Shown in pieces: positions 5,353-61,750 of a stretch of 64,000 nucleotides of DNA. This DNA is from an uncultured Rhodospirillaceae bacterium (lineage in GTDB: Bacteria > Pseudomonadota > Alphaproteobacteria > JAEUKQ01). A program made the position numbers and the translations under genes. The DNA lies in assembly GCA_964414755.1 (NCBI GenBank), contig CAYPXH010000002.1, positions 38,696 to 102,695 on the forward strand, given 5' to 3'. The notes below the pieces were generated by a model. It searched no databases and was not told the origin of the DNA. It worked only from the letters and a program-made list of their open reading frames with translations. The stretch's first letter is position 1. The number at the start of each line of letters is the position of its first letter.

Positions 5353-6579
5353 TTACCACTTTTTTTCAACCCGCTGACGAATGATGATAGCCAGCAAATT
5401 CATCATAATTAAAAATATAATTAAAACCAGAATTGCTGCGTATGTTTTTTCCACAAAAGCTGTTTCTTGTAAGTCAGACCACATAAAGATTTGTGCTGGA
5501 AGAACGGTACTTGGGTCTGTAAATCCACTTGGAATATCAACAATAAAAGCAATCATGCCAATCATCATGAGCGGTGCTGTTTCACCAAGTGCTCTTGCCA
5601 TACCAAGAATTGTACCCGTTAATATTCCTGGTAAAGCTAGGGGAAAAACATGATGCCATATGACCTGCGAATGTGAAGCCCCGACGGCTAAAGCGGCCTG
5701 CCTGATCGAAGTTGGAATCGCACGTAAAGAAGCCCGTGCTGCAATAATAATTACAGGCAATGTCATCAATGCAAGTACCATTCCACCAACCAAAGGCGAT
5801 GAACGGGGTAACCCGAATATGCCTAGAAAAAGCACAATTCCTAATAAACCAAAAATAATTGATGGAACGGCGGCCAGGTTGTTGATATTAATTTCAATTA
5901 ACCTGCTTAGAAAGTTCTTTTTAGCGAATTCTTCCAAATACAAAGCCGCAGCAGCACCAAATGGAAGTGATAGTAACAGTGTAATGATCATGGTTAGGAA
6001 ACTACCCATAACACTTCCCCAAATGCCTGCTTCTTCAGGTTCACGGCTGTCACCACTCTGCCAGAACGAAGTATCAAATGCGCGGTTAATTTTTTCTTGT
6101 GTTTCTAAGGCTGCTACCCATTGTTGTTGGTTAGCAGTTAACTTGCTGTTATCACCTGTTGTCAGATACTGGTCGATGACTGCCGACATTGGCAATGAAA
6201 CAATATAGGGCATTGCAGGGGCTGATGGTAATTTTTGTAGGGTGATTGCAAGATCATCACTTGCATGTGGCGACAGCATCCTTGGCAATTCACGTCGTTG
6301 TTGAGAGGTTGCAGTAATTTCTAAATTTTTTTCAAGCAATTGGCGGGTTAAAAGTCGGTAGTCCGGGTTACTTTCTTTGAACGACGAACTTGGTAGGTCT
6401 TCTGCGTTCATCTCAAGATCTATATAATGGTGAAAAAAAGCAGGCCATGCCTGGTAAAAAATATGTCCTACCAAAAATGTCAGGAAAGTGATAGGGATAG
6501 CTAAGCTTAAAAAGGTTACAAAACGGAACCGTTTTTCACGTGACAAGCGTTTTTTAAGATGTTTTTTGGGATTAGTCAT
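5353..6579 (-). CDS. pstA: Phosphate ABC transporter permease PstA
   Basis: 408-aa polytopic permease with an EAA-like loop (ARALGETAP), downstream of pstC. Overlaps pstC by 8 nt. Confidence 0.85.
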   Translation of the reverse strand: MTNPKKHLKKRLSREKRFRFVTFLSLAIPITFLTFLVGHIFYQAWPAFFHHYIDLEMNAEDLPSSSFKESNPDYRLLTRQLLEKNLEITATSQQRRELPRMLSPHASDDLAITLQKLPSAPAMPYIVSLPMSAVIDQYLTTGDNSKLTANQQQWVAALETQEKINRAFDTSFWQSGDSREPEEAGIWGSVMGSFLTMIITLLLSLPFGAAAALYLEEFAKKNFLSRLIEININNLAAVPSIIFGLLGIVLFLGIFGLPRSSPLVGGMVLALMTLPVIIIAARASLRAIPTSIRQAALAVGASHSQVIWHHVFPLALPGILTGTILGMARALGETAPLMMIGMIAFIVDIPSGFTDPSTVLPAQIFMWSDLQETAFVEKTYAAILVLIIFLIMMNLLAIIIRQRVEKKW

Positions 6580-32159: not shown

Positions 32160-32726
32160 CTAGTCTCTTGAAGAAACTGAAGTCAATACAAGGGATTGAT
32201 AGTGGGGTGGTGGAGATTTTATACCTTTGAATAAAAACTCTTTGCTTTCGTCCCAATTAACACCGCTCTCAAAATAACATATTAATCTCTTCTTTAGTTT
32301 ACCGGGATCACCAATCATTCCTGCAAGTTCTATAAGATCAAGATCCTGATTAATATTCAAGCCAGCTTTGATAACAGGTTCTGGTAAAAGACGGGACGCT
32401 GGATGATGTTCTATTAAATTAGCCCCGTAACGTCCTGGCTCAATGATGGGGCTTAGTATTTTATTAGGAAGAGGGCGTAAGTTTGGCAGAACATCTGAAG
32501 ACCGCATTCTCGCAATCATGAGGGGGCGAAATTTCTGAGGGGCAGCTACGGCACAAAAAAGCTGTTCGGTTTTGTTAAGATCAATTCCTTCAAATTTTTC
32601 AAAGGCACTTTTAATATTAAAGAACTCCATCAAAGTAGGAGTACGAAGCTGTGTTAAAGTGAAAAGATCATCTTTTAATTTTAGTGAAAGAACTAAATTA
32701 TCACGATAAACTAACCTCTTTAGCAA
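32160..32726 (-). CDS. Hypothetical protein (no recognisable family), first gene of AT-rich islet
   Basis: 188-aa ORF in a markedly AT-rich segment. No motif I can assign. Confidence 0.35.
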   Translation of the reverse strand: MLKRLVYRDNLVLSLKLKDDLFTLTQLRTPTLMEFFNIKSAFEKFEGIDLNKTEQLFCAVAAPQKFRPLMIARMRSSDVLPNLRPLPNKILSPIIEPGRYGANLIEHHPASRLLPEPVIKAGLNINQDLDLIELAGMIGDPGKLKKRLICYFESGVNWDESKEFLFKGIKSPPPHYQSLVLTSVSSRD

Positions 32727-33090
32727 GAATTACTCCTAGCTTCTGTTACGGATAGTAAAAAGAAAAACGACCTAATTCGCCACATGGTTTGTTTAAGCCC
32801 ATTAAACTTAAGGGTTATGATTCTACCCAGCAGTTCGTGCTCAATAGATAAAAATTTACAGGCTGGTTTAAAAAGGTTATACCTACCCGAATTTACACAA
32901 ATAGCTAATAAATTGATCTTCAAGCCCACTCTTGCGTGCTATCACTAGGAATACCGCTAATCAAGACAATTATAGTTTATTAGCCATTTAATCACCCAAA
33001 ACTTGTTACCACAAAATTAAATTTTTCTACCTAGAATCCCGTTGATGGAACGGAACATATTGTAATGATGGGTTCAAAACAATGTACGCA

Positions 33091-33324
33091 TCACTTAAGA
33101 TATAAATTTTGACCCACATACCAACCAGTCATCATATCCAGAATGTTTCCTAATATAGCTATTTCTTTCTCGTTATCTTGTTCAGATAAGCTATTCATAT
33201 ACTGGTAAAAATTTTGGATAATTTCTTCTTTAGGGATGCCTTTAGCGTTTAATGCTTTGACGATCATCCTAAGGCGTAGGGTAGGGTTCTTGCTTTTAAG
33301 AGCTTTAGATATTAGATCTTTCAT
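33091..33324 (-). CDS. Small hypothetical protein (77 aa), translationally coupled to upstream 224-aa gene
   Basis: ATGA 4-nt overlap with the 33321..33995 ORF. Charged helical peptide in the AT-rich islet. Confidence 0.3.
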   Translation of the reverse strand: MKDLISKALKSKNPTLRLRMIVKALNAKGIPKEEIIQNFYQYMNSLSEQDNEKEIAILGNILDMMTGWYVGQNLYLK

Positions 33325-33995
33325 GAAAAAAGATTTTCTTTAAGAGGATTCAAAAGAGAAGCCTGTTTTTTTATGTCAACCAGCATTTGATATTTTTTCG
33401 GGAACTGGGTTTGAAAAGTGAGAATACCTTTTTTTGAAAGCTTATCTTCTTCAAAAGCCCAGCTTAAAACGTATTCAGCTATAAACCTATTTCGGTTTAT
33501 ACCGCAAGGGATTAATTGTTGACAATTATACTTCTTGTCTAAGCGCTGTAATAGTTTTTTTGCTAAAACCCGCAATGGCCAGTCGATCCAATTATTATAA
33601 CCCTTGGTCACTAAAATAAGTTTTCGTGAACGAATTATTTTGATTAACGTTACTTCGTTAACATTCGGGTGGGCTACAAAATATTCTAGAAAATTTTCAA
33701 TATTAAAGCTTCTTTGTTTTCTTAGTAAAAAGATTAGATCAGAAATTTTAACAAGTGATTTCTTAATAATCACTTCAATAAAATTCTTAGCTTCAATCAA
33801 GCACCTTCTGGGTTCACTATCAGTGTATATAATGCTTATAGCATAGCAGAAAATTTCTCGAAAGGTTCGTCGTTGATTTTTCCAAATACATTCAATTGTT
33901 GAGGTATCTTTATGATATTCTACAAGATATTTGGAAAATTTAGTACAACCCATTTTGCTTTTAAATTTTTTGTAAGTTACAAGCGTGATCGACAT
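33321..33995 (-). CDS. Hypothetical protein (224 aa), AT-rich islet
   Basis: Long ORF in ~30% GC DNA, same strand as neighbours. No recognisable motifs. Confidence 0.35.
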   Translation of the reverse strand: MSITLVTYKKFKSKMGCTKFSKYLVEYHKDTSTIECIWKNQRRTFREIFCYAISIIYTDSEPRRCLIEAKNFIEVIIKKSLVKISDLIFLLRKQRSFNIENFLEYFVAHPNVNEVTLIKIIRSRKLILVTKGYNNWIDWPLRVLAKKLLQRLDKKYNCQQLIPCGINRNRFIAEYVLSWAFEEDKLSKKGILTFQTQFPKKYQMLVDIKKQASLLNPLKENLFS

Positions 33996-34235
33996 ATTAA
34001 AGAATATGTTCTTATGATGGCAAGTAAATCATATTAACTTGTTTTTTCATAAAGTTTTTTAATCTAGATAATAATAGATTATTTGGATGAGTGGCTAAAC
34101 CCATGCTTTTGGCAAGAGAGTTTGGTAAATTTTTACCAACTTTACTAATGATAGGTAAGATAATGATTGAATATCTAATTCTTCTGCACAACATGTATTC
34201 TGAATAATCTAGATGACCCCCATTTTATCAAATCG

Positions 34236-34751
34236 CTATGTCGATCGGAATAATTTTTGCATCTCTTTTAGGTTTTGCATATTAATAGATTTATCTATTC
34301 CCAAATGCTTCACTTTTAGTGACCAATTCTGATTATAAAACCTAATATCAACATCTGTAAAAAATAATCCACTTTCACCAAATACAACATGCGCGTCCGA
34401 TAAAGAAGATGCCCACTGGTTTTTAATTGCAGGGTTATTCAGAGAAACAAATTGGGTTAATAAAATCCGCTGGTTGGTAACAGAAAGAACATAATTGGTG
34501 GTGCTATGAATAAACCATAAACCCAAAAGCGAGCAAATAGAGGTAAGAAAAGCGATAATTGCTGTAAAATTTCGACTGTTCTTTACGGAAATAGCTACAA
34601 CGACGATAAATAGTATTAAAAACAAATTAACTATCGGTGGAACAGGTTGTTTGGTTGTTAATAGTGCATATTTTATCTTTTCTTCGGGCTGAAGTACCAC
34701 ATCAGATAAAACCTTTTGTGCAACAGCTGGGTATGGTAAAATCATCAACAA
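34236..34751 (-). CDS. Membrane protein with bacterial PH domain (bPH_2 / YdbS-like)
   Basis: 171 aa. Two N-terminal TM helices, then a beta-rich domain with YVLSVTNQRILL, resembling the Y-x-x-T-x-x-R core of bPH_2 domains. Confidence 0.45.
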   Translation of the reverse strand: MLMILPYPAVAQKVLSDVVLQPEEKIKYALLTTKQPVPPIVNLFLILFIVVVAISVKNSRNFTAIIAFLTSICSLLGLWFIHSTTNYVLSVTNQRILLTQFVSLNNPAIKNQWASSLSDAHVVFGESGLFFTDVDIRFYNQNWSLKVKHLGIDKSINMQNLKEMQKLFRST

Positions 34752-45946: not shown

Positions 45947-47356
45947 CTATTGAGAAATAATGAAAATGTTTTTCTTCCATTCCTTGACTTTCAAATGATC
46001 AAAACGACTGTTTAGACAAGATGATAAAAGGGCAACCTTGTCTTTAACTTGGATTTCAGTTAAGGGAGCGAACTCGTTGAGTCGGCTTGCGGGATTGACT
46101 CGACCATTTTCTTTACGCATGCGTAAAGATGATTTTAAACGGTGTCTTAAGAAGCGTATTTTGCGGTGTAAAATGGACAAGGGAGATATCTTAGGAAATC
46201 CGTGTTCTTCAATATAGTGTTCGATTAATGAAATAACCCTTTCAGCCCCCAGTTCTGGTCCATTGAAATTAGAAACAAATTTCTTAAATAAAATTTCTCG
46301 GTATAATGAGATCCGGTCATGTTGTTCGGTTGAAACTATTGCTTGGGGGTTGTTGCTTAACACTGTTATATACTTAAATAATGCATCAGGAGTAGTTACC
46401 TGGTAACTCAGATTATTTGGTAACATGGGGTCAAAATAAGCATGTGATATTGGTCTATAACTTACTGGCTGTAGGCCTAGGATAGCAGCCTCGACTGCAG
46501 TTGTGCATCCATTATGTATGAGAGCAGAACATGCTTTAAGCCAAGGAATAACATTTCCCTCGCGAATGACAACAATATTGGGGTGTTTTTTAGCTACTGC
46601 TACCCATAAGTCATAACCCTCGGCTGGGTGTGGTCTAATAATAATTCTAAAGTTGGAGAATTTTTCTGCTAACGACGGTAAAATTTGGATGAAGTGATCT
46701 AACAGTTGGTGGCGGTAAACTGCCAAATCAGGATCATAATTCTTAAGATTGGCATCAGCTGCTATGCTCCCTAATTCTTCCGGCAATGGTAGGTGCTTAT
46801 ATAATTTATTGAAGGGATTGACCTTACCAAAATTACTATTAAAAAGAATAAAACTTCCGTACTTTTTTTTAATTGAACTGACTTCGTGGTCAAAGAAGCC
46901 ACTAAACTCTGGTCGTAAAATATCAACCCGTGGATTACCGGTTATTTCAATTTGCCCGGGATTTGGGTGAAAATATTCAAGATTTTCTTTGTTGTCTTGA
47001 CCCCAAGCAAAAATAAGTTTGAAATAAGGTAAAGTGTCTTTGTGAACACGACGCTGGCGATAAAGTTCTGGTGAGTAATAAACGAGGGCTTCTTCATCCC
47101 ATCCTGTAATAATTGGTGTTATTACCCTTTGTAGGCTAGCAACCGTTTTATGGTGGCCTTCTGTTAGAGCTTTGGATATATAGATTGTGTTGAACAAATT
47201 TCCCAAGATTTTATTTCTTAATTCTATATGTTGACCAATAAAGACCCTGAAACCACGTTCGGCAGCAATACAGGATAACAACAGTTTTGCATCAAATTCG
47301 CGCACTTGCGACTCAACGGAAACAACTAGATTACCAATGGTTGTTATTGATTTCAT
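45947..47356 (-). CDS. Capsule polysaccharide biosynthesis protein, Capsule_synth family (KpsS/KpsC/LpsZ-like beta-Kdo transferase-like), paralog 2
   Basis: 469 aa. Motifs IIIRPHPAEG and VIREGNVIPWLKACSALIHNGCTTAVEAAILGLQPV resemble E. coli KpsS (IKHHPMD, VHD...LRHAKAVVTINSTAGISALI), recalled from memory. Tandem paralog of the upstream gene. Confidence 0.5.
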   Translation of the reverse strand: MKSITTIGNLVVSVESQVREFDAKLLLSCIAAERGFRVFIGQHIELRNKILGNLFNTIYISKALTEGHHKTVASLQRVITPIITGWDEEALVYYSPELYRQRRVHKDTLPYFKLIFAWGQDNKENLEYFHPNPGQIEITGNPRVDILRPEFSGFFDHEVSSIKKKYGSFILFNSNFGKVNPFNKLYKHLPLPEELGSIAADANLKNYDPDLAVYRHQLLDHFIQILPSLAEKFSNFRIIIRPHPAEGYDLWVAVAKKHPNIVVIREGNVIPWLKACSALIHNGCTTAVEAAILGLQPVSYRPISHAYFDPMLPNNLSYQVTTPDALFKYITVLSNNPQAIVSTEQHDRISLYREILFKKFVSNFNGPELGAERVISLIEHYIEEHGFPKISPLSILHRKIRFLRHRLKSSLRMRKENGRVNPASRLNEFAPLTEIQVKDKVALLSSCLNSRFDHLKVKEWKKNIFIISQ

Positions 47357-48759
47357 TATCTATCCGTTCTCAGAGAAAGATTGAAAATATTTTCTTTGTG
47401 TAGACTAATCTCTAAAGTATCAAAGCAACCATTCAGACATCTTGATAAAAGGGCTATCTTTTTTTGGATCGTCTCAAACGAGAGGGGTGGAAAATCGTTC
47501 TTACGCATGTCATCACTGTAACGGCTATTAACATCTCTCATAGCTGCCAGTTTTTGACGCTTGCGCTTAAGATAAGCCATTCTAGCCTTTAACTTTGAAA
47601 GCCAACATGTTTTCACTTGCTTTCCATTCGCATGTCTTTGAATCTCGTCGAGAATCAATTCGCTTGACAACCTACCTCTAGGATTAGTTATATAATTATC
47701 AATTATTTCCGAAAAATCTTTTTGCGTATTATAAGGTAGGCAAGAGTTATTTTGGTTAGCGTATATCAGCGATTTTAGGGTGCTTACAAGCTCATCCGCA
47801 CTGTAAGTTGGGAGACTGAGTCGAGTTGGCAAAAACGGATCAAAGCGCTCATCAACTAAGGGGTTATAAGAGATTACTGGAACATTCATAATACGCGCCT
47901 CTATGGACGTTGTACAGCCATTATGCAAAACCAGTTTACAGGCTTTCAGCCAATTAACTATGTTACCATCGCGTACAACACAAACATTTGCACAATCTTT
48001 ACTAATCTTTATCCATGGTTCGTGACTTTCTGCTGGATGAGGACGAATAACAAAACGCTGTTTAGGAAAGTTGTTGGCAAGTTGAGGTATAATTTCTAAG
48101 AACTTTTGAAATAACGCATTCTTATAAATAGCTAAATCTGCAACGTAATTTTTTTGGTTTATTTTGGAAAGAATAACTTTTTCTCCTGGCACAGGCAATT
48201 TTTTATAGAGGGTAGCAAATGGATTAACGCTACCAAAATTACTATTGAAAAGAACAAAATCCCCATATTCTTTCTTTATATTAGAGACATCTTGTTCAAA
48301 AAATGACTCAAATTCGCTCCTCAATAGATCACCACGAGGATTACCCGTAATGTAAACAGGAACATTGGTGTCATTATCCATGTTCCAGATAGCTGCACTA
48401 TCATTCCCCCAAGCAAACAAACCATCAAAAAGAGCCATGGATGGCTTATAAATGCGGCGCTTCCTATATAATTCTTGAGAATAATATACTAAAACTTCTT
48501 CATCCCAGCCAAAAATTCTAAAACCAAAACTTTTAATAAAGCTAAGAACTTTGAAACGCTGCGGTGTTATATCTTTTGCTAAGTAAGTCCCAACTGGTAA
48601 ATTACCAATCTCTAAATGAATATCGAATTGGTTGCCCAAAAATACATTAAAACCCCTAGTGGCAGCTAGGCAGGCCAGCAAAAGTTTTGCATCTAACTCG
48701 CGGATCTGTAATTCGATCGGAATAATAAGCGATGGTTTTTGTGATTGAATTGATGTCAT
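47356..48759 (-). CDS. Capsule polysaccharide biosynthesis protein, Capsule_synth family (KpsS/KpsC-like), paralog 1
   Basis: 467 aa. Collinear similarity to 45947..47356 throughout (ELDAKLLL, GWDEE-LVYYS-ELYR-RR, LFNSNFG-VNPF, RPHPAE, HNGCTT). Stop overlaps the start of the downstream paralog (TAATGA). Confidence 0.5.
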   Translation of the reverse strand: MTSIQSQKPSLIIPIELQIRELDAKLLLACLAATRGFNVFLGNQFDIHLEIGNLPVGTYLAKDITPQRFKVLSFIKSFGFRIFGWDEEVLVYYSQELYRKRRIYKPSMALFDGLFAWGNDSAAIWNMDNDTNVPVYITGNPRGDLLRSEFESFFEQDVSNIKKEYGDFVLFNSNFGSVNPFATLYKKLPVPGEKVILSKINQKNYVADLAIYKNALFQKFLEIIPQLANNFPKQRFVIRPHPAESHEPWIKISKDCANVCVVRDGNIVNWLKACKLVLHNGCTTSIEARIMNVPVISYNPLVDERFDPFLPTRLSLPTYSADELVSTLKSLIYANQNNSCLPYNTQKDFSEIIDNYITNPRGRLSSELILDEIQRHANGKQVKTCWLSKLKARMAYLKRKRQKLAAMRDVNSRYSDDMRKNDFPPLSFETIQKKIALLSRCLNGCFDTLEISLHKENIFNLSLRTDR

Positions 48760-56852: not shown

Positions 56853-56937
56853 TGGTGCCCCTTGCCGGACTCGAACCAGCACGTCTCTCAACACCTGATT
56901 TTGAGTCAGGCGCGTCTACCAATTCCGCCAAAGGGGC
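56853..56937 (-). tRNA. tRNA-Leu (anticodon CAA)
   Basis: Minus-strand GCCCCTTTGGCGGAATTGGTAGACGCGCCTGACTCAAAATCAGGTGTTGAGAGACGTGCTGGTTCGAGTCCGGCAAGGGGCACCA. Long variable arm. Anticodon loop CTCAAAA. Encoded CCA. Confidence 0.9.
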
Positions 56938-57012
56938 TTATGGGTACCAGTTGTTTACCCTTAAACATAAAATCCGTCAACAAAAATACTTTAAGTAAAG
57001 CTATTAGTAATT

Positions 57013-57328
57013 GGGGTCGACACAGAATTCGGAAAAAATAGTACGCTAAGATTAATTATCAGCTTATTATTCCTTCTCTTAGCGTGCTTTATTTTCGTTT
57101 CCTGAGGCGATTCCAAAAAGCCAAAATAATCTTGGTTAACAATACCACGAACCATCTGCATTCAATACCCCGTGCTAATCCACAGATTGGAATCGATAAA
57201 ATAGGGGTCGTTTGACGAAAGGGAAATAAAGCACCTTAAGACGATGGGAAGGGGCGCAAAGGCCTAAACTTCCAACCTATTGCTAAAACCTTAGCGTACT
57301 ATTTTTTCCGAATTCTGCGTCGATTCCT
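57013..57328. mobile_element. Tn3-family-derived miniature inverted-repeat element (TIME-like), copy A, 316 bp
   Basis: 38-bp terminal inverted repeats. Left IR 57013-57050 GGGGTCGACACAGAATTCGGAAAAAATAGTACGCTAAG. Right IR 57291-57328 reads (reverse complement) GGAATCGACGCAGAATTCGGAAAAAATAGTACGCTAAG. Outer GGGG and inner TAAG match the Tn3-family IR signature. No ORF inside. Confidence 0.6.
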
Positions 57329-57931
57329 ATATGAATCTTTTGGATCAGAATTTTCATTTCATCTAGGACCGATAATTGAGTTTTTTTACCACCTCAGGCA
57401 AGCTACTATCTTCCCATTTCGTCATTTTTCTTCTGAGCGCTATTTCTTTCTTAAAAGGGGTTAGATTATATTTTGACTCTGGTTATTGGAATAACACTAT
57501 TCCTCAAAATACTTAAAACGAAGTTAAATAATTATTATTTTACTACATATTCCATATTACATAATAAAACGCGGGTTTCAATCTGACTTAGATTTTTTTT
57601 ATGCCCATCAATAGCGGAGAAGTTTGGCTTAGCACTGAAATCATCGAACTCAAAAAAATATAATTCGATTGTCCTTGGTAGGACTTTAAAGCAACCCAAG
57701 CATTGAAGTTCGTATTTTTGTGGAGTCTTAGAGCATATTTGGCCATAGGCAGTAATGTTAATATGGTGAAACATTCAAGATTGAGACTGGAAAATTAAAC
57801 AACATGTTGTATCCCTTAAAATTGCAGTACGTAACTGCACTTGAAAACAAGCAGATCAGAGAAAAGATCAAGGTTCTTTGTAAGCATCGTTCGATGCTAT
57901 AAACTGGGCTATTATTACAATCATTATAGCT

Positions 57932-58885
57932 TTGTATAGTGGTGGTATAGGGTTAATAATTACCGATAAACCTTTATTTCTTGTATTTGGAACGATCTCG
58001 CTCAGTTTATCAATGCTTCTTTCTTGGTATTTAAGTCATGATTGCGCTCATCTTTTAGTTTTCAAAGCCAAAAAATACAACGATTTTCTTGGAGAATTAC
58101 TGTCGTGGATTAACGGTCTCGCATATTTCAGATTTCACGAATATCGCAAAGATCATTTAAGGCATCATTTAGAACAAGTTGATCTTGCTGGAGTAAATGT
58201 TTCTAAAGTTTTGTCTAAGCTACCATACCCATGTGGCAAAATCACAATATTTCTAGAGCAATGTTATATCCCAATAATTTTTTTCATAATAAAAATTCAC
58301 AACATCATTGGTGTTATTCAGAGCAAAAATATAAGTTACATTATTCGAGTGATATTGGTAGGGTTAGTTTCTCTGTTATTTCTTTTTTGGTTAGCAATAA
58401 CTCATTGGTGGTCACCATTTCTATATTTTTTTGCTGTAATTATACGAATTCATTCTGTTAGGTTCGTAGACGCTTTCCAACATAGTTATGTGCAAATTGA
58501 TCCCTCCAATAGAAATAAACCTCAAGACAAATTGTACGAACAGAAAAATACTTTTTCATACCCTGTTGCGCGTCAGTTTAAATTCTTAAATCTTATTATA
58601 TTAAATTTTGGATTTCACAATGCCCATCATGCTGTACCCGGCTGTCCTTGGTATAATTTACCTAAAATCAATGAGATTATTCTCAACTATAAAATAACTG
58701 AGAAGGGTTCTTTAAAAATTAATGGAGAACCTCATTATGTAAGGTTCTCAGAATTAATTTATTGTTATCATAAGAAGCTAAAAGAGAGGCTTACTTCTAC
58801 AAACGAAGGAAGACCTTATAATGATGAACTTAGATTTTCAATGAAAGACTTTACGGGTGCTTTCACAGATAATCTTCTAGGATAG
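57932..58885 (+). CDS. Membrane fatty-acid desaturase/hydroxylase superfamily protein (di-iron, three His boxes)
   Basis: 317 aa, ~4 TM. His boxes HDCAH, HEYRKDHLRHH, HNAHH. Low-GC cargo gene of the composite element. Confidence 0.7.
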   Translation: MYSGGIGLIITDKPLFLVFGTISLSLSMLLSWYLSHDCAHLLVFKAKKYNDFLGELLSWINGLAYFRFHEYRKDHLRHHLEQVDLAGVNVSKVLSKLPYPCGKITIFLEQCYIPIIFFIIKIHNIIGVIQSKNISYIIRVILVGLVSLLFLFWLAITHWWSPFLYFFAVIIRIHSVRFVDAFQHSYVQIDPSNRNKPQDKLYEQKNTFSYPVARQFKFLNLIILNFGFHNAHHAVPGCPWYNLPKINEIILNYKITEKGSLKINGEPHYVRFSELIYCYHKKLKERLTSTNEGRPYNDELRFSMKDFTGAFTDNLLG

Positions 58886-58916
58886 GACAATAACAGTAAT
58901 TCAAAGGCTTTACATT

Positions 58917-59894
58917 ATGCTAAATAAAAAAATTAAAGGTGACACAGTCCCAGTTATCGATATTTCCTCACTTTTTAGTAATAAAAAGAGTGAAACTGAT
59001 AACTTAGCAAGGTCTATTGCGGCGGCCTGTAATTCAATTGGATTTTTCTATATTATTAATCATGGAGTTTCTCATACTATCTTTGATAACGTGTTTTCAG
59101 AATGCAGGGCGCTTTTTAATATGTCTGCTCAAGAAAAGGAATTAATAAATATCCACAAATCAAAGCACATGCGGGGATATTTTAGTTTTGGTGCAGATAA
59201 ATCTGATGGTATTCATGGGGATATTAAAGAGGGTTTTGATATGGCCAGTGACATTCCTTTAGATGATCCATATGTGAAAGCAGGACTAGCATTTTATGGG
59301 CCAAATGTTTGGCCGGCAAATTTGCCAAATTTCAAAAGAGTTACAACAGAGTATTATACAAGTATGTTACAAGTAGGTCGATTACTTTTAAGATCTTTTG
59401 CTCGGGGATTAGGAGTAGAAGATAATTTCTTTGACGACAAATTCCGTAAACCAATGGCCCAAATGAGACTACTACGCTATCCCCAAACCCCTAATCCAAA
59501 TAGTAAACAAATTGGTGCAGGAGAACACACAGATTTCGGTTGGATAACTATGATTGCTCAAGATGAGATAGGTGGCCTCGAAGTATTAAATAAACAGGGA
59601 GAGTGGATTGACATTCCTCCCGTTCCATCATCTTTAGTAGTCAATATCGGTGATCTTATGGCACGGTGGACAAATGATCAATACACTGCTACGTTTCATC
59701 GTGTCATCAACAAAAGCAGTCGGGATCGTTATTCTATCGCTTTTTTCATGGATCCTGATTATCATGCAAACGTTGAGTGTCTACCTAGTTGCAAATCGAA
59801 AAATCGTCCTGCTAAGTATGATCCAATTATTGCTGGAGACTATATGAATAAGAGATTCTATGAGACAACTACCTTCCGGGATTATCAGAAATAA
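58917..59894 (+). CDS. 2-oxoglutarate/Fe(II)-dependent oxygenase (IPNS/ACC-oxidase-like: DIOX_N + 2OG-FeII_Oxy)
   Basis: 325 aa. Facial triad H-x-D...H (HTDFG ... FHRV) and R-x-S (RYSIAF). Confidence 0.7.
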   Translation: MLNKKIKGDTVPVIDISSLFSNKKSETDNLARSIAAACNSIGFFYIINHGVSHTIFDNVFSECRALFNMSAQEKELINIHKSKHMRGYFSFGADKSDGIHGDIKEGFDMASDIPLDDPYVKAGLAFYGPNVWPANLPNFKRVTTEYYTSMLQVGRLLLRSFARGLGVEDNFFDDKFRKPMAQMRLLRYPQTPNPNSKQIGAGEHTDFGWITMIAQDEIGGLEVLNKQGEWIDIPPVPSSLVVNIGDLMARWTNDQYTATFHRVINKSSRDRYSIAFFMDPDYHANVECLPSCKSKNRPAKYDPIIAGDYMNKRFYETTTFRDYQK

Positions 59895-59967
59895 AACACC
59901 AATTAAAATTCTTGTTAAATCAATGTATTAATAAATCAACAGGCTAATCTTAGAGGATGCTTCTATT

Positions 59968-60417
59968 ATGCCAGAAAAAAGTAGTTTCTTGTATTATCTT
60001 TCAGCAGTTATTGCAATTATTGGTACCGTTGGGTACCACTTTTTCGTCAAAAAGATACCTTCTGGCATTCATCCTCTTGTTTCGGTTGTTGGTATTTATG
60101 TCGCAGTATTAGTCATTTGTATTCCGATTTTATTGTTAATCCCTATCCAGGGAGGACTTGCCATGCATATTAAACAATTGAATTGGGTTCAGGTGGCAGT
60201 TGCGCTAGCCATCATCTTGATGGAGCTTGGCTTTTTATTAATGTATCGGTATGGGTGGGATTTAAGTGTAGGGAATTTGGTGACCGGAGTTGCTATCAAT
60301 ATTATGTTAATGGCTATTGGGTTGCTTATTCTTCGAGAACAGTTAAGTTTTATTAATATAGTTGGTATTATCTTATCGATTGCAGGCGTAGCGATGATCA
60401 GTTACCGAAGCTCATAA
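59968..60417 (+). CDS. Small 4-TM DMT-superfamily (EamA-like half-transporter) membrane protein
   Basis: 149 aa, four hydrophobic helices. Last cargo gene before TIME copy B. Confidence 0.45.
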   Translation: MPEKSSFLYYLSAVIAIIGTVGYHFFVKKIPSGIHPLVSVVGIYVAVLVICIPILLLIPIQGGLAMHIKQLNWVQVAVALAIILMELGFLLMYRYGWDLSVGNLVTGVAINIMLMAIGLLILREQLSFINIVGIILSIAGVAMISYRSS

Positions 60418-60431
60418 AATAAACTTAGGAT

Positions 60432-60667
60432 GGGGTCGACGCAGAATTAGAAAAAAATAGTACGCTAAGGTTTTGCAATAGGTTTGAAGTTTAGGCCTTT
60501 GCCCCTCCTTCCCATCGTCTTAAGGTGCTTTATTTTCCCTTTCGTCAAAGGACACCTTAGAAGGGTTTTCTAACTCTTATAAAATTCCCAATATACTTCG
60601 CCGGGTCGCAGCAGCTCTAAGCACAAAACATTAGCCTAGTATTTTTTCCTAATTCTGCGTCGACCCC
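60432..60667. mobile_element. Tn3-family-derived miniature inverted-repeat element (TIME-like), copy B, 236 bp, inverted relative to copy A
   Basis: Left IR 60432-60469 GGGGTCGACGCAGAATTAGAAAAAAATAGTACGCTAAG. Right IR ends at 60667 (...GCGTCGACCCC). Internal 60470-60548 is the reverse complement of copy A's 57204-57290. Sits between the convergent DMT and hppD genes. Confidence 0.6.
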
Positions 60668-60670
60668 TAA

Positions 60671-61750
60671 TTAAGCTTTTAAAACCCCACGACGAATCTG
60701 GTCTTGTTCCATGGATTCAAACAATGCCCGGAAATTTCCTTCACCAAACCCCTCATCGCCCTTCCGCTGGATAATCTCAAAGAAAATAGGGCCAATAACA
60801 GTTTCCGTAAAAATTTGTAAAAGCAATCCACCAGCCGGTGATCCATCAATCAGCAAAGCATTTTTCTGCAAGCGGGCAACATCTTCACCGTGATTTGGTA
60901 ATCTTTTTTGTAACATTTCATAATATGTTGCGGGAGGAGCAGCCAAAAACTTAATTTTGCGCTGACGCAGGCTTTCAACAGTTTTATAGATATTGTCGGT
61001 GGCAAGGGCGATGTGTTGGATTCCTTCGCCTTTATAGAGTTTTAAATATTCCTCAATCTGACTTTTATCATCGGCACTTTCATTGATGGGAATGCGAATT
61101 TTACCACATGGACTGGTCATTGCTTTGGATTTAAGGCCAGTTAACTTCCCTTCAATATCAAAATAGCGAATTTCTCGGAAATTGAACAGTCGTTGATAAA
61201 AATCAGCCCATTTAGCCATATTTCCACGGTATACATTATGGGTTAAGTGGTCAATATAAGCTAATCCCATATCTGGTATGTTAGAAGGAGTTGTTTTGGT
61301 AAAAGACGATTCATAAACATTACCTTTTTTACCATAGCGATCTACAAGGTAAAGATGACTACCGCCAATGCCTTCGATGGCGGGAACATTATCTAAAAGC
61401 GTGGTGCCAGTGGCTATGGGTTTGGCGCCCAATTTTATGCTACGCTGATATGCTTTGTTGGCGTCTTTAACGCGAAATCCGATTGAGGCGCAGCATGGAC
61501 CATGCATGTTAGCAAATTTTTTTGCATGGCTTGATGGATCCTGATTTAAAATAAAATAAATATCGCCCTGTTTATACAATATTATTTTTTTGGTTTTGTG
61601 CAAACCAACACGTGAAAAACCCATCTGCTCGAAAAGGGGCTCTAGTAGTTTACTATCATTTGGTTCTGCGTATTCAACGAATTCAAAACCATCTGTTCCA
61701 GCCGGATTAATAGGGTCAAGATCATAACCGGTGGTTGGTGTTTGGTGCAT
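60671..61750 (-). CDS. hppD: 4-hydroxyphenylpyruvate dioxygenase
   Basis: 360 aa from ATG 61750 (MHQTPTTGYDLDPINPAGTDGFEFVEYA), N-terminal to the upstream-extended ORF. VOC-fold tandem domains. C-terminal FGEGNFRALFESME motif. Confidence 0.85.
   Translation of the reverse strand: MHQTPTTGYDLDPINPAGTDGFEFVEYAEPNDSKLLEPLFEQMGFSRVGLHKTKKIILYKQGDIYFILNQDPSSHAKKFANMHGPCCASIGFRVKDANKAYQRSIKLGAKPIATGTTLLDNVPAIEGIGGSHLYLVDRYGKKGNVYESSFTKTTPSNIPDMGLAYIDHLTHNVYRGNMAKWADFYQRLFNFREIRYFDIEGKLTGLKSKAMTSPCGKIRIPINESADDKSQIEEYLKLYKGEGIQHIALATDNIYKTVESLRQRKIKFLAAPPATYYEMLQKRLPNHGEDVARLQKNALLIDGSPAGGLLLQIFTETVIGPIFFEIIQRKGDEGFGEGNFRALFESMEQDQIRRGVLKA

Follow-up and report, generated by a model that had tools for sequence, protein, structure and literature searches.

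A probable transposase-less Tn3-family composite transposon carrying a metabolic cassette in the chromosome of an uncultured alphaproteobacterium

We analysed a 64,000-nucleotide stretch of DNA, hereafter the window, from an uncultured Rhodospirillaceae bacterium (contig CAYPXH010000002.1, assembly GCA_964414755.1). Close to its right end, a 3,655-bp segment (57013-60667) separates the gene for hydroxyphenylpyruvate dioxygenase (HPPD) from a tRNA-Leu(caa) gene. The segment consists of two short structures, A on the left and B on the right, and about 3.1 kb of cargo between them (57328-60431). It very probably represents a single non-autonomous composite transposon of the Tn3 family, with inverted repeats (IRs) of the Tn21/Tn1721 subgroup, similar to the composites known as TIME-COMPs and mobilised by a transposase acting in trans.

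The filled site and its empty counterparts

The limits of the element and its immediate flanks are as follows.

57013-60667, plus strand: composite transposon without tnpA, 3,655 bp, delimited by blastn breakpoints in seven related contigs
57008-57012, no strand: left copy of the 5-bp target-site duplication TAATT, read from the sequence
60668-60672, no strand: right copy of the duplication TAATT, overlapping the HPPD stop codon (60671-60673, minus strand)
56853-56937, minus strand: flanking tRNA-Leu(caa) gene, with the insertion 75 nt upstream and the conserved upstream region preserved

Relative to close relatives of this bacterium, the segment is an insertion that is bounded by the tips of its outermost IRs, which are of a class we call IRa, and that generated a 5-bp duplication. 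The target was AT-rich and lay between the stop codon of HPPD and the promoter of tRNA-Leu(caa), and the stop codon is overlapped by the duplication yet unchanged. On both sides, TAATT adjoins the outermost IRs (57013 on the plus strand, 60667 on the minus strand). A comparison of the flanks of every plus-strand IR with those of every minus-strand IR gave a match at this outermost pair only; the probability of a chance match of 5 bp is about 0.0014 for a single pairing and about 0.017 when all 12 pairings examined are considered. The flanks were also inspected for the reverse-complement pattern of inversion-type intramolecular replicative transposition or of recombination between A and B, which was absent.

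Seven contigs of relatives preserve the corresponding empty site (L108, L110, L113, L118 from GCA_016794225.1, L119 from GCA_035329745.1, L120 and L121). In each of them the blastn alignment to the window ends exactly at 57012 and restarts exactly at 60668, with an overlap of 5 nt in the relative. These contigs were reached through an OmpA protein cluster and include a 258-kb contig and two NCBI metagenome-assembled genomes (MAGs); the OmpA protein encoded on the MAG contigs (P0248) carries the NCBI organism name 'Alphaproteobacteria bacterium'. They share 90.6-97.1% nucleotide identity with the window, have the same gene order, with HPPD followed directly by tRNA-Leu, and contain the 5-bp site once, as TAATT in four of the seven and as TAGTT in the other three. 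The empty site reads ...aaagttattag TAATT aagcttttaaaacc..., TAATT being followed by aagctttt, and the filled site reads TAATT (GGGGTCGAC...GTCGACCCC) TAATT, the insert running from the first to the second of the bracketed sequences. The insert is present in every one of eight contigs that are 98.5-100% identical to the window.

Window and close relatives have in common the order Bax1, an RND efflux pump pair, YdjM, DUF7832, a bacterial PH-domain protein, tRNA-Leu, HPPD, OmpA and ApaG. A more distant relative (L099; HPPD amino-acid identity 79%; nucleotide identity to the window 74%) shows the same OmpA-HPPD arrangement, and its tRNA-Leu(caa) lies 113 nt after the HPPD stop codon without an insert between them. 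At the HPPD loci of 80 distant genomes, 60 of which were scanned for tRNAs, neither the tRNA-Leu synteny nor shared neighbours were found.

We conclude that one insertion, not two elements, is present at this locus, because TAATT stands at the outermost tips and seven related contigs hold precise empty sites. An earlier note on this DNA had described two divergent copies of a miniature element, each expected to have its own 5-bp duplication. The two structures prove to be the left and right ends of one 3,655-bp composite, and their individual flanks (TAATT/TATAT for A, AGGAT/TAATT for B) contain no 5-bp direct repeat. The target-site duplication of 5 bp that is typical of the Tn3 family is thus found for 57013-60667 as a whole and not for A, B or the cores within them, and the segment has the architecture of a TIME-COMP, with two modules around a cargo and direct repeats outside the outermost IRs.

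Compound ends and their inverted repeats

Both ends of the element are compound structures, in which IR-like sequences of two classes are combined.

57013-57327, plus strand: left compound end, element A, 315 bp, with four IR-like sequences
57013-57050, plus strand: outermost left IR, IRa class (Tn1721/TnAs1-like), GGGGTCGACACAGAATTCGGAAAAAATAGTACGCTAAG, from an identity scan against plasmid IRs
57078-57114, minus strand: internal IRb', Tn21-like class, 37 nt, with the tip GGAATCG and not GGGGTCG
57204-57327, plus strand: 124-bp core copy 1, comprising IRb, a tnpA 3' remnant and IRa, the tip of the latter abutting the cargo
57204-57240, plus strand: internal IRb, Tn21-like class, GGGGTCGTTTGACGAAAGGGAAATAAAGCACCTTAAG, from IR alignment
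57236-57274, minus strand: tnpA 3'-end remnant, WKFRPLRPFPSS and stop, with the stop codon inside IRb as in Tn21-like transposons
57290-57327, minus strand: internal IRa with the mutated tip GGAATC, from IR alignment
60432-60667, plus strand: right compound end, element B, 236 bp, with three IR-like sequences
60432-60556, minus strand: 124-bp core copy 2, inverted relative to copy 1, with IRa at 60432-60469 (plus strand) and IRb at 60519-60556 (minus strand)
60630-60667, minus strand: outermost right IR, IRa class, GGGGTCGACGCAGAATTAGGAAAAAATACTAGGCTAAT, with an intact tip and a degenerate inner end

The two ends together contain seven IRs of the classes IRa (consensus GGGGTCGACGCAGAATTCGGAAAAAATAGTACGCTAAG) and IRb. 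Element A reads IRa (plus), 27 nt, IRb' (minus), 89 nt and core copy 1, composed of IRb (plus), the tnpA remnant and IRa (minus); element B reads core copy 2, from IRa (plus) to IRb (minus), followed by 73 nt and IRa (minus). The outer arms of A (57013-57050 on the plus and 57290-57327 on the minus strand) are identical at 35 of 38 positions, and dinucleotide shuffles of the window yielded no match to the IR. What connects the two ends is the core: 57204-57327 in A is the reverse complement of 60432-60556 in B, at about 94% identity, and this similarity breaks off precisely at each of the two IR tips; beyond the 124-bp core, A and B have unrelated interiors. In the inverted arrangement both IRa tips abut the cargo, and beyond the IRb tip of each core a further IRa follows at 73-190 bp. 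The IRb of core copy 2 has a degenerate tip, GGTGTCC.

[quoted passage not shown] As to transposition of their own, A, B and the cores lack direct repeats, and the core is present twice, with similarity that ends at the IR tips.

Several details of the earlier description can be refined accordingly. Pairs of 38-bp IRs do bound both structures (57013-57327 and 60432-60667), the length of B was given correctly as 236 bp, and neither A nor B contains a credible ORF, in agreement with the claim that they encode no protein. Element A, put at 316 bp, ends at 57327 and measures 315 bp. The IRs had been described as running from GGGGTC to ACGCTAAG, which fits two of the four outer IRs; the right IR of A starts with GGAATC, and the right IR of B ends in ACTAGGCTAAT. 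The supposed internal partial duplication in A is in reality a pair of IRb-class sequences (57078-57114, minus strand, and 57204-57240, plus strand), of which B has a single one (60519-60556, minus strand).

In ungapped scans, IRa agrees at 35 of 38 positions with the outer TnAs1/Tn1721-like IR of plasmid pALTS33 and at 33 of 38 with a Tn21-like IR (best shuffle 26), and IRb aligns with the IRs of Tn21, of TIME244 and, on the left side, of the integron mobilisation unit IMU. The best ungapped match of the window's IRs to the IR of Tn3 (GGGGTCTGACGCTCAGTGGAACGAAAACTCACGTTAAG), by contrast, reaches at most 22 of 38 positions, which is chance level, as shuffles reach 22-25; a resemblance to the Tn3 subgroup proper (Tn3, Tn1000, IS101) was thus not found. 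In PLSDB, more than 5000 plasmid records were matched at the termini of Tn3-family transposons, and the plasmid IR matches overlap the ends of annotated Tn3-family transposase genes; on pEclC18, for example, the gene in question stands beside resolvase and mer genes. With a length of about 38 bp, GGGG at the start, TAAG at the end and similarity to known members, the IRs have the features of Tn3-family termini, and by alignment we assign them to the Tn21/Tn1721 subgroup of this family, not to Tn3 itself. The earlier attribution to the Tn3 family therefore stands, while the likeness to the IR of Tn3 that had been put forward for it does not, even though the Tn3 IR quoted there is genuine (100% identical in more than 5000 plasmids).

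On pALTS33 (MN366361.1; L095 9001-9159), a TnAs1/Tn1721-like transposon has a Tn21-like one nested in it, 83 bp inside its end, and the 3' end of its tnpA is thereby cut. This plasmid is a natural precedent for two IR classes side by side.

Further observations concern sequence variation and folding of the ends. The tip variant GGAATCG, in which GGGG is changed to GGAA, occurs three times in A (57108-57114, 57189-57195 and 57321-57327); two of these copies are inner IR tips, and the third stands alone, 9 nt ahead of the IRb at 57204. Within IRa, positions 18-20 are hypervariable, both among copies and among strains (window 57030-57032, 57308-57310, 60449-60451 and 60648-60650, and the same positions in L084-L088), with the variants TTCGG, TTAGA, TTAGG, TTCAA and one with a 1-nt deletion; the remaining IR is conserved. 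The variants of the left IR of A and the left IR of B look swapped in some strains, which suggests gene conversion or slippage at a stretch of A residues. Two Logan short-read contigs of the same species (L090, L091) break at the start of or inside the 124-bp inverted cores; assemblies thus tend to fragment this transposon at its ends. RNA folding yields a long hairpin in A (z = -11.7) and another in B (z = -7.5), which follow trivially from the IRs; a role as terminators would be speculation.

Transposase source, mobilisation and alternative histories

A tblastn search of the window with three TnpA proteins recovered just a 9-residue C-terminal remnant and no tnpA, and tnpR was likewise not detected. 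The element thus has no TnpA of about 1000 amino acids, as an autonomous member would, nor a recognisable resolution module of tnpR or tnpI plus res, and the absence of TnpA makes it non-autonomous; a nearby ORF of 1048 amino acids is AcrB. The remnant corresponds to the last 12 codons of tnpA (KFRPLRPFPSS and stop, compared with KFRPLRPLPPA and stop in the Tn21-like gene). It lies at the same offset from IRb (57204) as in Tn21-like transposons, with its stop codon inside the IR, and a local alignment to the inside of the Tn21-like IR scores 34, a value reached by none of 1000 shuffles. In tblastn, eight of nine residues are identical to TnpA residues 980-988. Three of the first seven codons differ from the Tn21-like gene, and synonymously only, so that the parent was a distinct member of the Tn21 subgroup and not Tn21 itself.

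A second candidate remnant of the tnpA 3' end, at the right end of B (the GCTGCTGCG block), is weak: 7-23 of 1000 shuffles reach its score and its offset differs, and we do not claim it. In JGI metagenomes a 24-mer pattern of IRa found just three stretches on two contigs, which match the window at its IRa copies and adjacent bases only; in viral contigs it had no match. Further copies of these short elements were found neither in the window nor in representative genomes or viral contigs. Neither the interior of A nor that of B resembles the interiors of TIME244, IMU or IS101 more than shuffles do, Rfam reports two tRNAs only in the window, and scans for promoter and terminator consensus sequences gave counts that were not above shuffle expectation.

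These features would be compatible with the Tn3-family transposition route as summarised in PMC13367494. A TnpA of the Tn21 subgroup, supplied in trans from a plasmid or another transposon, would bind the outermost IRa pair, nick the 3' ends and join them to the staggered TAATT target, and the whole unit would move by replicative 'paste-and-copy'. Replication would yield a cointegrate, which could be resolved by homologous recombination or by a foreign resolvase. The internal IRs may have been left behind when Tn21-like and Tn1721-like transposons nested in one another and underwent deletions at an earlier time, and the 124-bp core may represent a hybrid-IR miniature derivative that retained the last 12 codons of tnpA and, before the composite reached this locus, was copied to either side of the cargo in inverted orientation. 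Mutation of the internal tips from GGGG to GGAA or GGTG would leave the outermost pair alone usable, and could reflect either decay or selection in favour of whole-unit movement. An intended function of the compound ends is conceivable as well: seven IRs of two specificity classes and hybrid 124-bp units might allow two transposases to drive the same cargo, with silenced inner tips forcing whole-unit movement, which we regard as improbable. The resident or past Tn3-family transposon that the earlier note had deduced is acceptable in part, in that a past source of transposase is a fair inference, although this source need not have been resident in this chromosome.

Several results weigh against a composite mobilised in trans. 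Between the two outermost IRs there are five mismatches. Unlike the modules of published cases, A and B do not represent one miniature element in identical copies, nor do they have duplications of their own. The source of the transposase was not found in the 64-kb window, and the IRa 24-mer pattern gave no exact match, and thus no autonomous partner, among 185,579 representative genomes. Compared with the region upstream of a Tn21-like tnpR, which was assumed to be res, the interiors of A and B showed no res-like site above shuffles, though a divergent res is possible. Finally, the GC content of the insert (0.355, compared with 0.405 for the window) is only weakly distinctive as evidence of foreign origin, since host genes nearby have a comparably low GC.

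As the main alternative, a Tn3-family unit transposon that was autonomous, with tnpA and with or without tnpR, may have inserted at this site and lost these genes in place through deletion shortly afterwards, so that no mobilisation in trans ever occurred. Internal deletion is a common form of decay among Tn3-family transposons, the outer ends and the TAATT repeat would look identical after such a history, and the faint tnpA-like block beside the right outermost IR would agree with it. However, the same tnpA-less structure is present in eight of eight filled-site contigs, the one clear tnpA remnant sits in the core, the deletion junction is found in both inverted cores, and the spacers hold no further trace of tnpA or tnpR. 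The two cores moreover differ by about 6%, while filled strains differ by no more than 1.5% from one another, so the deletion of tnpA would predate the spread of the insertion. We therefore consider loss in place unlikely. Still less probable, and in our view very doubtful, is that A and B are separate miniature Tn3-derived elements that inserted independently on either side of native chromosomal genes. Each is indeed bounded by inverted IRa-type repeats and lacks an ORF, and their common core, with its IR tips as boundaries, must once have been copied as a unit. Yet neither has a 5-bp direct repeat, their interiors outside the core are unrelated, and the seven syntenic relatives lack A, B and the intervening genes alike, with breakpoints at the outermost tips only.

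The proximity of a tRNA gene and the GC content below the window mean could also point to an island integrated by a site-specific recombinase, or to an ancestral segment that the relatives lost precisely. There is no integrase in or beside the segment, though, and the insertion lies upstream of the tRNA promoter and not in the tRNA 3' end, with its 5-bp repeats adjoining Tn3-family IR tips. Empty sites occur in seven contigs of 90.6-97% identity and in the more distant relative (74% nucleotide identity), so that ancestral presence would require repeated exact excisions. Exact excision is not known for replicative Tn3-family elements, and we see almost no chance that either history is correct. 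A single composite transposon, moved as a unit by a transposase supplied in trans, thus remains the reading that we favour.

Cargo, related systems and significance

The cargo between the inner IRa tips comprises four ORFs.

57535-57774, minus strand: ORF of 79 codons without Pfam or NCBIfam match, called as a gene in related contigs
57932-58885, plus strand: fatty-acid-desaturase-like membrane enzyme (PF00487, E = 7e-28)
58917-59894, plus strand: 2OG-Fe(II) oxygenase, isopenicillin-N-synthase-like (PF14226 and PF03171)
59968-60417, plus strand: small EamA-like transporter of 149 aa, with a PF00892 match under the Pfam cut-off; its place beside the other cassette genes is conserved

The cassette of desaturase-like, 2OG-oxygenase and EamA-like genes is conserved in unrelated organisms of 42-64% GC (L101-L107), where Tn3-family IRs were not found near the homologues; four of these contigs (L102-L105, 42% GC) carry an oxygenase truncated to its C-terminal 191 aa. 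On plasmids, no close homologue of the cargo was detected (at most 42% identity). Because it is found without the IRs in other organisms, the three-gene cassette is a portable module. In this strain and in L086, the desaturase-like gene has suffered a 1-nt deletion (at about 57905, window 57880-57935). The gene is a 360-aa ORF in L084 and L085; here its N-terminus is truncated, leaving a 317-aa ORF with a TTG start, and it may be decaying or using another start.

The rest of the 64 kb is ordinary chromosomal DNA and includes bipA, pst genes, mutS, murJ and a run of rimP-nusA-infB-truB-pnp. Where the GC of the window is lowest (0.35-0.38), at 45947-48759 and 32160-34751, it contains ORFs without Pfam match, namely an adjacent pair of about 468 aa each and three of 171-224 aa.

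Published TIME-COMPs, as described in 2014 (PMC4133298) and by Gomi & Yano in 2026 (PMC13367494), lack a transposase, have 38-bp Tn3-family IRs and enclose unrelated cargo between two short modules, which lie in direct or in inverted orientation. They are flanked by 5-bp AT-rich repeats and measure 1.2-11.4 kb, with 3,414 bp for the TIME244/tet(A) example (PMC4133298; PMC13367494). The element described here shares the absence of transposase, the 38-bp outermost IRs, the inverted modules, the unrelated cargo and the 5-bp AT-rich repeat, and its 3,655 bp lie within the published range. It differs in its end modules, which measure 315 and 236 bp, have only the 124-bp core and IRs in common and contain additional internal IRs of a second class. 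Its location is also different, being chromosomal, in an uncultured bacterium with about 40% GC, and not on a plasmid of Pseudomonas or enterobacteria, and so is its cargo, an oxygenase/transporter cassette known here from sequence alone instead of a resistance or replication gene.

The closest parallel to the core itself is IMU, a 288-bp miniature element of the Tn21 subgroup (Poirel et al. 2009; sequence from Table S2, PMC13367494), which forms composites in inverted orientation and is mobilised by the Tn21-subgroup transposase of ISSod9 (PMC13367494). Like the core, IMU has hybrid IRs of both classes, one Tn21-like (...AAAGCACG.TAAG) and one Tn1721-like (...AAAAAATCGTACG.TAAG); unlike the 124-bp core, with which it shares no similarity in the interior, it is 288 bp long and has no recognisable tnpA remnant. 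TIME244 and IS101 (PMC13367494) are likewise short tnpA-less derivatives with Tn3-family IRs, those of TIME244 belonging to the Tn21 subgroup. Both carry res-like sites, whereas no res-like similarity was found in our element, and the IR of IS101, which is of the Tn3 subgroup, matches the window's IRs at chance level (22/38). Nested ends of Tn21, Tn1721 and TnAs1 on plasmids such as pALTS33 (MN366361.1) have IRs that agree at 33-36 of 38 positions and a tnpA stop codon inside the IR, and on pALTS33 no more than 83 bp separate a Tn21-like from a Tn1721-like end. Those plasmid elements, however, are either autonomous transposons with about 60% GC or remnants to which tnpA is still joined, whereas all coding capacity is gone from the ends of this element; moreover, the two IRs on pALTS33 are direct, and those studied here lie in inverted orientation, 48-50 bp from each other.

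On an unrelated metagenome contig, Ga0075163_10004187, perfect IRa ends bound a unit of 3,938 bp that lacks tnpA and whose cargo encodes a P-type heavy-metal ATPase, an ArsR regulator and LspA, which shows that IRa-type ends circulate with cargo elsewhere. This unit has no 5-bp direct repeat. Its terminal inverted repeats are 68 bp long (contig 1957-2024 and 5887-5954; L094 1957-2024, L093 863-930), and in each of them an inverted Tn21-type IR overlaps the tip of IRa by 12 nt, the two lying back-to-back around the palindrome GTCGAC; the overlap hints at a recurrent, undescribed way of joining the two IR classes. A further Tn21-type IR (L093 9660-9697) could bound an 8.8-kb unit with a resolvase and no tnpA. 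A solo perfect IRa was seen on another contig (L092, 2020-2057, minus strand), beside a 340-bp segment of 55% GC in a contig of 39% GC (1680-2057); no Rfam family reached the threshold there, and the sole match in the vicinity was a weak, sub-threshold one to a hammerhead.

The locus provides a clean natural pair of filled and empty sites. Read in isolation, the ends of the element resemble two separate miniature elements, which shows how composites of this kind escape annotation pipelines. Such composites have so far been documented mainly on plasmids of Pseudomonas and enterobacteria, and in Enterobacteriaceae 97% of the replicons with such miniature elements are plasmids (PMC13367494). The mechanism is not new, and the element is best regarded as a well-documented chromosomal example of the known TIME-COMP-like kind. 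In this case a Tn3-family composite without tnpA would have moved a metabolic cassette of three to four genes into the chromosome of an uncultured environmental bacterium, which widens the known host range and cargo of these elements beyond antibiotic resistance genes.

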